Sequence record: OP870143.1
Reading direction: 5' to 3' (one strand)
Source of the DNA: Escherichia phage vB_Eco_F22
Length of the DNA stretch: 64,000 nt
Below, piece by piece: positions 33,061 to 34,994 of this stretch. How positions within the stretch are numbered: position 1 is the stretch's first letter; every line of letters starts with the position of its first letter. Both the position numbers and the translations under genes were made by a program. The notes under the pieces are model-generated. The model saw only the letters and a list, made by a program, of their open reading frames with translations, was not told the DNA's origin and made no database searches.

Positions 33061-33231
33061 ATGAACAAATTTACTATTCACTGGCTCAATGGAAAGGTTA
33101 GTTCTTTCATGGGTGGAGAACCTGCTGAAGGAAACAAAGCATTCCACATTGATTCAGAAGGCTGCAAAATCTTAATACCATATGCTTGGTATAAAGATGG
33201 TGAAGTTGAAGCATTAAAAAAGAGTAGTTAA
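33061..33231 (+). CDS. Possible small protein (about 56 aa) upstream of the structured non-coding region
   Basis: ATG..TAA read by eye; not in the ORF track. Confidence 0.25.
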   Translation: MNKFTIHWLNGKVSSFMGGEPAEGNKAFHIDSEGCKILIPYAWYKDGEVEALKKSS

Positions 33232-33999
33232 TATCGTGAAGGGTTCTGTCAGAATCCTTTGAGATAGGAACTCCTATCATAACCTTTCTTAACTTAATCT
33301 TTGCCGTATGGCACTGACGCTAGGGGTGGCCCCCCATCCGTCAGACAGACTATTTTAAGAATGGGTTATCTCAGAAAATGTAAAGCAACATTCGGGTTAA
33401 TCAATGGCCTCTCCTATAGAGGCCATTTCTGAATCTTAGGCTATATCCCAAAGGTTAATATCTTTGGGATAAGGCTTCAGATCCCTTATCAAACTAACCG
33501 CTCAATGTTGAGCATTTTAATCACATAAGCCCCTATATGGGCTGGGTTAAATGTCGGATAGCATAGCTACCTACAGCATCGAATTGTTAGGTCTTACATG
33601 CAATATAGGGTATAAAGGGAGGACTCGTCCCCTCCCTCCTATTATGACATCCTATCAATGAGTACACTTCAAGTGGTAGGCCTGCCGCTCTTGAAATTCA
33701 TCTGCAAAGCTGGAAGTGTACTCTTTGATAGTTTTCGTAAGCGATTATGCGGTTTTTTAGAAACGAACCAATAACATAAATGCAAACGATGATGTTGTTC
33801 TGATGGCAGCCTAATAAGCCAAGCGTCAGTCAGGAGTGAGTCGTCCTGATTATCAAACGACCGTGGAGTACTCCCGTCCATGTATTAGAAACGGGGGACC
33901 AATTACCAGTTGCACGAGATGGCTTGACATGTTCAAGTTTGGACTAAGTGTGACACCGCTAGATTGGAGGGCTGCTGCGGTAAGCTATAGACTCCAACC

Positions 34000-34270
34000 G
34001 GAGGTTCGAATCCTTCACTGGTAACCAATTCAAAGTAGCACTGCATAGAACGCGAAAAGGTACAGCGACGTTAGCCATACGGTATTGTGAGGTTCGAGTC
34101 CTCACCTATGAGCAGTGACGACTGCAACAGTGCTACTCTGAATTGGAAGAATTAAGACGGGTCTGGTGAAGTAGATGGGGTTCGATTCCCCCAGGTGGAG
34201 TAATCCACTAGCGTGCTTGGTGCACGAATAAGACTTAATACTGGTGGTTCGATTCCATCCCCCGTTACCC
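34000..34270 (+). other. Four tRNA-like T-arm modules (GGTTCGAATCC, GGTTCGAGTCC, GGTTCGATTCC x2) that do not fold into canonical cloverleaves
   Basis: T-loop motifs spaced 88, 88 and 67 nt; module 1 is followed by ACTGGTA-A-CCA whose 7-nt complement TACCAGT lies about 107 nt upstream. Confidence 0.3.
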
Positions 34271-34461
34271 AAAGTCGCCAGGTACTTATGGCAAATGGGT
34301 AGTAACGAACTAGTCATTCGTCAAACGCCCACCTAATTACGAGTCAGCAAGAACGCCTTCATTTAAACTTAAACAAAAAAGCTTAACGCAATAATTATGT
34401 AGGGGTATGTAAGGATTGCGAAGAAGGAGCCAGTTAGAGCCTGGCATGACTCACCCATTAT

Positions 34462-34535
34462 GTCCACTTAGCTTAGACTGGGAAAGCAACCGACTAATAA
34501 TCGGAAGGTCACTGGTTCAAATCCAGTAGTGGACA
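34462..34535 (+). tRNA. tRNA gene (74 nt); anticodon loop CTAATAA, anticodon tentatively AAT; CCA not encoded
   Basis: Manual cloverleaf: acceptor GTCCACT/AGTGGAC (7 bp), D-stem GCTT/AAGC with GG in loop, 4-bp anticodon stem CCGA/TCGG, T-arm ACTGG-TTCAAAT-CCAGT. Confidence 0.5.
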
Positions 34536-34769
34536 CCTATTCAGCAGTAACATAGTCCTGATTGCATAGCACTCTAAAGACAACACTGGTAAGACAGTCC
34601 AGTGGCTGCTAATGTATTGTTATTCCCCTCGACGGGAATTTCGCTAGTGAAGGTAACACTTAAAAATCCAAAGCTACGTCTTACTACTATCGGGCTATCA
34701 ACCCACGGTCGCTTAACCCTATAGCGGTAGTAGTTTGACGGCCTGCCTCGTTGACTGCGTTAAAGTCAC

Positions 34770-34811
34770 TAAGTCCCTCGGAGCCGTCACTCTGGGGGAC
34801 TTTTTTATTTG
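34770..34811 (+). terminator. Intrinsic terminator closing the structured non-coding region
   Basis: Stem AAGTCCC.../...GGGGACTT with about 15-nt loop followed by TTTTTTATTT. Confidence 0.5.
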
Positions 34812-34994
34812 AGAACTACTTATTGGACGATTCATATGATTGACCTAATCTTAACACCGTATGCCTATGAGGTAACGGATAACCAAGGACGTAAGTCTTT
34901 GGTGTTTGCAGGTAGCGTAGCCTATAACAACGCAGTCATGTTTAAATACAAACTCAAACCACTCTATGAGGCTAATAATGGCAACAGTAAGTAA
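34809..34994 (+). CDS. Hypothetical small protein (61 aa; TTG start in track, ATG at 34836)
   Basis: ORF starting inside the T-run of the upstream terminator; weak RBS. Confidence 0.3.
   Translation: MRTTYWTIHMIDLILTPYAYEVTDNQGRKSLVFAGSVAYNNAVMFKYKLKPLYEANNGNSK

Follow-up and report, generated by a model that had tools for sequence, protein, structure and literature searches.

Positions 33232-34811 of a 64,000-nucleotide (nt) stretch of Escherichia phage vB_Eco_F22 (OP870143.1), referred to here as the window, form an array of small non-coding RNA genes on the + strand. The array occupies the tRNA-gene slot of this N4-like (Gamaleyavirus-type) coliphage and, as a whole, is a variant of the phage tRNA-gene cluster. 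Within it, positions 33731-33897 correspond to the mRNA-like and pseudoknot part of a transfer-messenger RNA (tmRNA), termed the tag module below. An earlier sequence-only reading had recognised the region as non-coding and structured, but overlooked this module, its most informative element. The favoured interpretation, held at somewhat better than even confidence, is that the array is processed into separate small RNAs, among which the tag RNA would be a translated template for tagging of the trans-translation type, with the acceptor supplied in trans.

Architecture and coding properties of the tag module

The tag module is 167 nt long and begins with GUUUUCG. Its parts are the following.

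33731-33897, + strand: tmRNA-derived tag module without a tRNA-like domain (Rfam sub-threshold matches; covariance model R1)
33731-33781, + strand: 5′ part with GUUUUCGU, putative pseudoknot PK1 and AUAAAU resume context (Rfam alignment; collinear with permuted tmRNA)
33782-33814, + strand: tag frame GCA AAC GAU GAU GUU GUU CUG AUG GCA GCC UAA, reading ANDDVVLMAA-stop, without a start codon
33800-33829, + strand: helix-5-like hairpin CUGAUGGC/GCCAAGCGUCAG, whose loop holds the stop codon (4 of 4 pairs changed on both sides; 90% of cells paired)
33828-33861, + strand: pseudoknot PK2 (stem S1 AGUCAGG/CCUGAUU; stem S2 GUCGU/ACGAC)
33862-33897, + strand: pseudoknot PK3 (S1 CGUGG/CCAUG; S2 CUCCCGU/ACGGGGG), followed by ACCA at 33898-33901

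A number of these features are those of tmRNA (RF00023). An A-rich resume context is followed by GCA without a start codon, and the ten-codon tag is of the ANDxxxxxAA type (ANDENYALAA in E. coli), with a hydrophobic-Ala-Ala end and a stop. The stop codon lies inside the helix-5-like hairpin and H-type pseudoknots follow the tag; a third downstream pseudoknot (PK4) is absent. The element GUUUUCGU at 33731 is aligned by Rfam's tmRNA model to the conserved GGAUUCGAC element, in the ortholog from Klebsiella phage PW7.

The tag was compared across an alignment (A2) of 79 distinct copies of the module. The frame is exactly ten codons long in all 79, the other two frames ranging from 1 to 23 codons. 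It occurs in 36 nucleotide versions, in which codons 1-3 are almost invariant, all four third-position bases are in use in the final Ala codon and TAA, TGA and TAG all serve as stops. The C-termini are LAVA, LMAA, LMVA, LAAA and RVAA, and replacements are conservative (D/E, F/Y, L/M, A/V); the frame reads ANDDLMMVAA in P1 and ANEEMYLAVA in HK620. In 72 of the copies the frame upstream of GCA, traced back to the nearest stop (or to the edge of the extracted segment), is free of AUG, GUG and UUG. The tag behaves like coding sequence and is under coding-type constraint.

This pattern bears on the idea that the module is an untranslated decoy, titrating host trans-translation or tmRNA-binding factors such as SmpB, ribosomal protein S1 and RNase R. 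Pseudoknots and a resume region of tmRNA type without an acceptor domain would suit such a role, and the module is the mirror image of the homolog in mycobacteriophage DS6A, which consists of the tRNA-like domain (TLD) only; RNA like the DS6A sequence strongly inhibits tmRNA, perhaps through SmpB titration (PMC4131195). However, a decoy would have no need for an exact ten-codon frame, a fixed stop, free Ala third positions and conservative replacements, as seen throughout the 79 copies, and this explanation is considered unlikely.

The fold of the module is conserved through compensatory change. Pairing over the 33 pairs of its seven helices, pseudoknots included, amounts to 90.9%, and drops to 36-52% if the partners are shifted by 1-3 columns. 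Compensatory cells number 284, compared with 78 +/- 11 in shuffles, none of the 500 reaching that number, and the covariation score is 0.351 versus 0.160. PK2 (helices 4-5) is 91-95% paired with 8 of 9 pairs changed on both sides, while helices 6 and 7 of PK3 are 100% and 87% paired, respectively. RNAalifold finds one stem per pseudoknot, with 8 of 10 of its pairs doubly changed. A per-sequence search that does not depend on the alignment recovers PK2 in 78 copies (28 stem variants) and PK3 in all 79 (29 variants). PK2 and PK3 are two covariation-proven pseudoknots.

The best Rfam match is to the permuted, or two-piece, form of tmRNA (tmRNA_permuted, RF04321; related families RF01849-51), at 33692-33814 with 38.8 bits (E 8e-6; gathering score 47). 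A second sub-threshold match is to beta_tmRNA, and both tmRNA-family matches rest on AUAAAUGCAAACGAUGAUGUUGUUCUGAUGGCAGCCUAA, the unpaired tag region. RF00023 yields nothing across the window beyond a 5.8-bit local T-loop match; in PW7 its full-length alignment reaches 20 bits, far below the threshold of 47, with both acceptor strands deleted. Model R1, built from alignment A2, gives a single match in the window (33728-33899, 146.5 bits) and scores 113-178 bits on bacterial prophage copies outside its training set. Its best match outside the family is nt 80-137 of E. coli ssrA, the tag region (20.5 bits, E 0.005).

The likeness to permuted tmRNA extends to a separate tag-carrying RNA and to the resume context, AUAAAU followed directly by GCAAACGA. 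The pattern ATTCGAC-N35-65-AAATGCAAAYGA, searched in viral contigs, gave 119 loci, in 72 of which ARAGORN calls a tmRNA, flagged as permuted in 66. One such coding piece reads acc5′-ACACAG-AUUCGAC-GGCGCAU...PK1...AGUAAAU, then GCA AAC GAU. The phage module is collinear with the permuted coding piece from GAUAG-UUUUCGU onward, in the one example examined. At the acc5′ position the window has seven bases, ACUCUUU (33721-33727), which are paired instead inside the upstream long hairpin LH1, described below. The simplest history suggested by this comparison is that the module descends from a coding piece of the two-piece type that lost its acceptor strand.

Distribution among phages and prophages

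A blastn search with 33640-34035 retrieves 261 phage records. The tag-plus-pseudoknot stretch is 70-88% identical across phage groups that are otherwise unrelated, and is never annotated. In P1 the module lies immediately after the "dicF-like region" and before trnA/trnT, and in HK620 it lies between pR′/qut and tQ. Other carriers include D6, the SE131-like phages of ~90 kb, Vi1-like Ackermannviridae (phiMAM1, KpS110, Ag3), N4-like phages, the 45-48 kb Akira/Roufvirus-type siphophages and phages of Aeromonas, Cronobacter and Erwinia.

In IMG/VR, a strict pattern matches at least 120 viral contigs. The same pattern, applied to one genome per bacterial species, gave 56 matches, of which ~8 have the ten-codon frame; these are prophage-type copies in records of Escherichia, Pseudocitrobacter, Erwinia and Rosenbergiella, together with one Bacillota-labelled contig of a metagenome-assembled genome with a P1-type sequence. 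The other ~48 are scattered chance hits with random frame lengths and no pseudoknots, and act as a built-in negative control. Every match rejected when the 79 copies were gathered lacks PK2 and PK3 and resembles antisense protein-coding sequence. In 147 E. coli genomes, the HK620-type copy carries no PGAP annotation. Members of the tag-module family are carried by many phages and prophages, unrelated to one another, of enterobacteria and related gamma-proteobacteria.

Two further RNAs were observed near the module in other phages. The first, RNA X, is unannotated and conserved, and lies downstream of many tag modules, though not in the window. It has the form UGUGGUG-AA-UGCGCAGGCUGAUGCGC ... 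variable ... GCCGGAGAUCAGCACCGGC-CACCACA, with a 3′ tail that is not a conserved NCCA; both of its hairpin stems covary (in P1, GCAC/GUGC and GUCGG/CCGAC) and its loops are complementary (GCUGAU/AUCAGC). RNA X is found in the loci of P1 (L001) and HK620 (L002) and in L024, L025, L055, L064, L066, L085, L086, L094, L108, L113, L116, L121-L124, L129 and L163. The second is STnc100, a gammaproteobacterial small RNA family in Rfam that travels with phage tRNA regions, matched in KpS110 (L009, 2498-2711; 48.7 against a gathering score of 47) and partially in P1 (L001, 2682-2801).

Acceptor function and the proposed role of the tag RNA

A tRNA-like domain linked to the module was not found. In more than 100 loci, no 5′ acceptor strand or T-arm belongs to it consistently. 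No complementary 5′ strand lies upstream, and the 7-bp acceptor stem, the T-arm, the G3:U70 pair and the 3′ CCA of tmRNA are absent. The module differs from tmRNA also in having three pseudoknot regions only within ~170 nt, and in being phage-encoded, inside tRNA clusters or late leader regions. What precedes it varies: a sigma-70 promoter (TTGACA-17-TAGATT) lies a few bases upstream in Akira-type phages, a terminator T-run directly upstream in P1, and the 3′ strand of a long hairpin upstream in other groups. Many loci have no T-arm within 1.1 kb downstream, and those T-arms that are present belong to ordinary tRNAs or separate tRNA-like genes; at one locus the ribosome-binding site of a protein gene follows PK3 directly. 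ARAGORN, run for standard and permuted tmRNA on 131 sources, made two calls, both artefactual, the single call that covers a module being an artefact spanning three ordinary tRNAs. Known coding pieces of two-piece tmRNA open with a 5′ acceptor strand and pair with an acceptor piece encoded upstream, whereas the phage module has no such opening strand, several phage groups have a promoter or terminator immediately upstream of it, and no acceptor piece was found.

Several candidate links to tmRNA were rejected. PK3 with the following ACCA (33891-33901) is not a pseudoknotted acceptor arm like that of turnip yellow mosaic virus, because the combined length of S1 and S2 ranges over 10-14 bp and only some N4-like copies have ACCA after PK3. 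Pairing of long-hairpin strands around the module in the manner of tmRNA helix P2 is discounted because Akira-type and P1 copies have no upstream strand. The sequence GGACUAAG is not a tmRNA hallmark; it is confined to N4-like relatives, its other occurrences being apparent coding sequence ~900 nt downstream of the module (in HK620, their position agrees with that of the annotated holin gene). Outside the tag, BLAST matches E. coli ssrA to short stretches of P1 (GUGGAAGCCCU) and phiMAM1 (UCAACCCGCGCCAGCUC), at E values of 0.09 or above and not collinearly. The P1 match (L001, about 1916-1926) is identical to 11 nt of E. coli tmRNA PK3 (E 0.5) and may be due to chance; downstream of the module, both P1 and phiMAM1 have recurring GGAAGCC motifs related to it.

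Next to the module, the array encodes a tRNA-like RNA.

33904-34027, + strand: CCA-ending tRNA-like RNA (acceptor stem, T-arm, ACCA, compensatory changes)

The acceptor stem of this RNA is 7 bp long (UACCAGU/ACUGGUA), a D-side hairpin lies at 33923-33937 and a T-arm at 34000-34016, and ACCA is encoded. In place of the anticodon arm there is a possible pseudoknot (ACCGC/GCGGU with UUGGAG/CUCCAA), and neither ARAGORN nor Rfam calls a tRNA. Every helix substitution among five distinct orthologs is compensatory: C-G to U-A and CA/UG to UG/CA in the acceptor, A-U to G-C in the T-stem and U-A to C-G in the hairpin.

The tag module and this RNA might together be a complete but unconventional two-piece tmRNA, with the coding part first and the parts associating non-covalently after processing. 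They lie side by side both in the window and in PW7, where RF00023 spans both at 20 bits, and 33904-34027 combines an acceptor stem, a canonical T-arm, an encoded ACCA and covarying helices with UUGGACUAAGUGUG, which resembles the tmRNA-conserved GACUAAGCAUGUAG. In that alignment, however, both acceptor strands are deleted and many P2 pairs are marked as non-canonical. The gene order matches neither standard nor known permuted tmRNA genes, because the 5′ acceptor strand lies after the tag. Moreover, 33904-34027 closes on itself with no evident intermolecular helix and lacks G3:U70, is separated from the tag module by two other modules in phages PBM-3 and ECBP1, and is missing from most tag-module phages. 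A two-piece tmRNA of this kind is improbable.

In the favoured interpretation, that of separately processed RNAs with an acceptor in trans, the array would be transcribed toward its terminator as one or a few precursors and then cut into separate RNAs. Host RNase P and RNase Z-type enzymes would cleave at the tRNA-like modules, and RNase III possibly at the long hairpins. To judge from its coding-type constraint, the tag RNA probably serves as a translated tagging template. Ribosomes left without their mRNA would read it from GCA, as in trans-translation, which would add a phage-specified degron of the ssrA type to stalled nascent chains. Aminoacyl-acceptor function would come from another molecule, for which host tmRNA-SmpB is one candidate and phage tRNA-like RNAs that end in CCA, such as 33904-34027, are another. 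That enterobacterial phages carry a stand-alone tag RNA loaded in trans by either of these means is a tentative proposal, with the chances against it.

A number of points weigh against the interpretation. To our knowledge there is neither a mechanism nor a precedent for a message-like RNA loading onto a rescued ribosome without a joined or base-paired tRNA-like domain, and a conserved pairing partner of the tag module was not found. Expression, processing and tagging in all family members are predicted from sequence comparison. The candidate acceptor 33904-34027 has C3:G70 in place of the alanine identity pair G3:U70, is not an alanine-type acceptor and is confined to N4-like relatives. The putative PK1 (GUUUU/GAAAC, UUAUG/CAUAA) is weakly supported, stem 1 having no compensatory change and stem 2 being 75.6% paired with register shifts between sequence types. 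The last codons of the tag lie in helix 5, so that RNA structure could account for part of its constraint. Finally, the 79 copies were gathered by a pattern fixing GTTTTCGT and AAATGCAAAYGA and retained only with a ten-codon frame, and are biased to conserved copies.

Phage-borne derivatives of tmRNA have been described before. An exhaustive 2014 survey of ssrA in RefSeq phages reported no tmRNA other than those of mycobacteriophages, Bacillus phage G and DS6A, the last with the TLD only (PMC4131195). The complete phage tmRNAs, those of the Bxz1 group and Bacillus phage G (PMC4131195, PMC11915505), are detected by ARAGORN and Rfam, whereas the tag-module family is not. DS6A illustrates that half a tmRNA can persist in a phage, yet it retains the opposite half, the tRNA-like domain without a tag. 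The pipeline of a 2025 tmRNA database rejects truncated forms and candidates with deletions in the tRNA-like or coding portions (PMC11915505). A description of the tag RNA was not found in Rfam, in PGAP annotation or in the searchable literature, and the six commonest tag peptides appear in no paper of that literature, which covers subscription journals in part. The tag module is apparently an undescribed tmRNA reduced to its message and pseudoknot half.

The rest of the array and the meaning of the tag module

The other features of the array are listed below.

33232-34811, + strand: non-coding RNA-gene array between two small PHROG-matching genes
33403-33481, + strand: two very stable hairpins (10-bp stem at 33403-33427; composite ~20-bp hairpin at 33428-33481)
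33652-33731, + strand: long hairpin LH1, CUAUCAAUGAGUACACUUC/GAAGUGUACUCUUUGAUAG (z -5.6; compensatory changes in PW7)
34035-34136, + strand: long hairpin LH2, GUAGCACUG/CAGUGCUAC (z -3.9; stem retained in PBM-3 and ECBP1)
34174-34271, + strand: composite tRNA-like element with two T-arm motifs (34177-34191, 34243-34259), ending CCCCGUU-ACCCA
34462-34537, + strand: genuine tRNA-Ile, anticodon AAU (ARAGORN; RF00005, 65 bits)
34683-34734, + strand: hairpin ACUACUAUCG/CGGUAGUAGU containing CGGGCUAUCAACCCACG, a motif in common with Serratia phage phiMAM1
34771-34811, + strand: intrinsic-terminator-like hairpin and U-run at the array's end (13 pairs, 7 of them G-C, at 34771-34802, then a T-run)

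The sequence-only reading had described the region as protein-free, dense in hairpins and ending in a hairpin plus T-run, and each of these statements is upheld. The five longest open reading frames inside 33232-34811 have no protein-family match, while the small flanking genes at 33061-33231 and 34809-34994 match PHROGs strongly (E 2.5e-43 and 6e-21). Both stems that it had named are present, AAUGGCCUCU/AGAGGCCAUU at 33403-33427 and AUCCCAAAG/CUUUGGGAU at 33445-33470. Four segments fold far better than shuffled sequence: 33392-33492 (-43.1 kcal/mol, z = -6.5, 0 of 200 shuffles as good), 33648-33735 (z -5.6), 34030-34150 (z -3.9) and 34676-34811 (z -3.6); the remaining segments are unremarkable in this respect. 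The G+C-rich hairpin and U-run expected of a Rho-independent terminator are found at 34771-34802, within the last of these segments, and a terminator is annotated at the array end in PhAPEC5, PhAPEC7 and G7C. The + strand, structured, tRNA-gene-associated and non-coding character of the region is confirmed throughout.

The 1579-nt array region has matches in 140 phage records, at 80-97% identity and each in several aligned pieces. Most of these are N4-like coliphages of the G7C/PhAPEC5/ECBP1 type (Gamaleyavirus), together with Klebsiella, Salmonella and Shigella relatives. The annotation over the array varies among records, from none to "hypothetical protein x7", tRNA-Ile, tRNA-Cys, tRNA-Thr, tRNA-OTHER or a terminator. 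The 7-9 "hypothetical proteins" annotated across it in Mimir124, RudolfBernhard_Bas96, nithesis and other deposited genomes are probably false gene calls.

Five T-arm-like motifs had been noted, of which only the last was said to fold into a cloverleaf, and both statements hold. The motif GGTTCRAWTCC occurs four times in the whole window (0.08 expected), always on the + strand and at 34003-34524; the fifth is a GGTTCGAGTCC variant at 34091. Had four or five ordinary tRNAs been called, the reading would have failed, but ARAGORN and Rfam reject four of the five T-arm modules, the composite element 34174-34271 among those without an ARAGORN call, and RF00005 is satisfied only at 34462-34537. This tRNA-Ile has an unusual anticodon, AAU (A34), and is labelled Ile or Xle in relatives. 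CCA-ending or tRNA-like RNAs are known among phage tRNA genes, for example the species 1 and 2 RNAs, rnaC and rnaD, of T4, presumably released by tRNA-processing enzymes. The modules of the window are likened to these by description only, and differ in including hairpin-embedded T-arm structures without a free 3′ end. A separate arrangement was observed in locus L012, on the reverse strand at about 55-130 of the ARAGORN sub-sequence. There a T-arm, 3′ acceptor strand and GCCA (GAAGGUUCGAUUCCUUC-ACCCUUC-GCCA) are followed after four bases by the matching 5′ acceptor strand, GAAGGGU-UA-GUGUAAUGG, in permuted-tRNA-like order, upstream of three ordinary tRNAs and a tag module.

The long hairpins share a conserved U-U mismatch and carry variable apical inserts. 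LH1 directly abuts the tag module; its counterpart in PW7 has compensatory changes (GAGCACC/GGGUGCUC) and a different apical insert, and homologous stems, GGUAAGAGCA/UGCUCUUUCC, flank modules at lambdoid-type loci. The tip of LH2 bears a cloverleaf-like insert with a T-arm at 34087-34105, and PBM-3 and ECBP1 retain the stem with a different insert. The family consensus is 5′ ..ACAACAGGUAAGAGCAUU / 3′ AGUGCUCUUUCCGUUGU.., its members in the window being CAAUGAGUACAC/GUGUACUCUUUG and the LH2 stem. The inserts are interchangeable and some are tRNA-like with a T-arm. Such hairpins occur in L002, L004, L007, L096, L112, L116, L120, L123 and other loci, often just before a tag module or another RNA; an automated census, with too strict a search, found seven instances. 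One insert, GAAUGUCRCGUUAGYGAAUGGACAAGGUWUCCUUGCAG, is common to Klebsiella N4-like phages (PW7, L096) and L120, a locus otherwise of HK620/Akira-type character. The long hairpins are possible RNase III sites or processing scaffolds. Near the array's end, CGGGCUAUCAACCC(A/G)CG at 34691-34707 occurs also in the Serratia Vi1-like phage phiMAM1 (L003, about 1987-2006), inside a different long-range helix in each of the two phages, which suggests yet another shared RNA module.

Whole modules are gained and lost between relatives. PBM-3 (L005) and ECBP1 (L006) have an insertion of ~217 nt between 33897 and 33904 (locus positions about 1386-1605). It includes two tRNA-like modules, one annotated as tRNA-Cys or pseudo-ACA and the other of the form UCCGGUG...CGCCGGA-ACCA. 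The ACCA after PK3 (33898-33901) appears to be the scar left when sequence between ACCAAU junctions was deleted. Individual modules of the array also recur alone in unrelated phages.

These observations bear on two readings that had been offered for the region, neither of which is upheld. The first was one large ornate RNA of ~1.6 kb, comparable to GOLLD, ROOL and HEARO, which are likewise phage-borne, highly structured and adjoin tRNA genes. The dense structure, the adjoining tRNA gene, the single terminator at the end and the lack of obvious internal sigma-70 promoters would all agree with it. However, at the gathering threshold only tRNA passes in Rfam, with no intron or tmRNA match, and GOLLD, ROOL and HEARO have no match in 33100-34950 even at E <= 10; no long-range helices enclose the region. 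Relatives gain and lose whole modules. Module swaps, indels and independent recurrence argue for a cassette-like array of separately functioning RNAs, and a single large RNA is only barely conceivable.

The second was a decaying tRNA cluster, in which the tag module would be a captured tmRNA fragment spread by recombination, junk with residual structure. The mosaic region has many indels between relatives, several T-arm modules do not fold as tRNAs, and pipelines label modules pseudo-tRNAs or tRNA-OTHER. Decay falls short because helix substitutions are compensatory, both in the tag module and in 33904-34027. The tag module is, moreover, retained at 70-88% identity across phage groups that share nothing else, with the tag frame intact in every copy, and this reading is highly unlikely.

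Annotation pipelines place hypothetical proteins or pseudo-tRNAs over these RNAs, and the tag-module family could enter Rfam. A tmRNA is defined by a tRNA-like together with an mRNA-like role in one molecule or in two base-paired pieces; here the message half alone is conserved, in the model phages P1 and HK620 and in N4-like and Vi1-like phages of the therapeutic type. This leaves two possibilities, either an unknown route by which ribosomes receive the tag template, or viral interference of a new class with ribosome rescue. If the tentative proposal of a stand-alone tag RNA loaded in trans is true, the C-terminal tag on proteins from stalled ribosomes, and with it their fate, would be dictated by the phage and not the host. 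Trans-translation would then have a new architecture, and viruses a new means of taking over host quality control.

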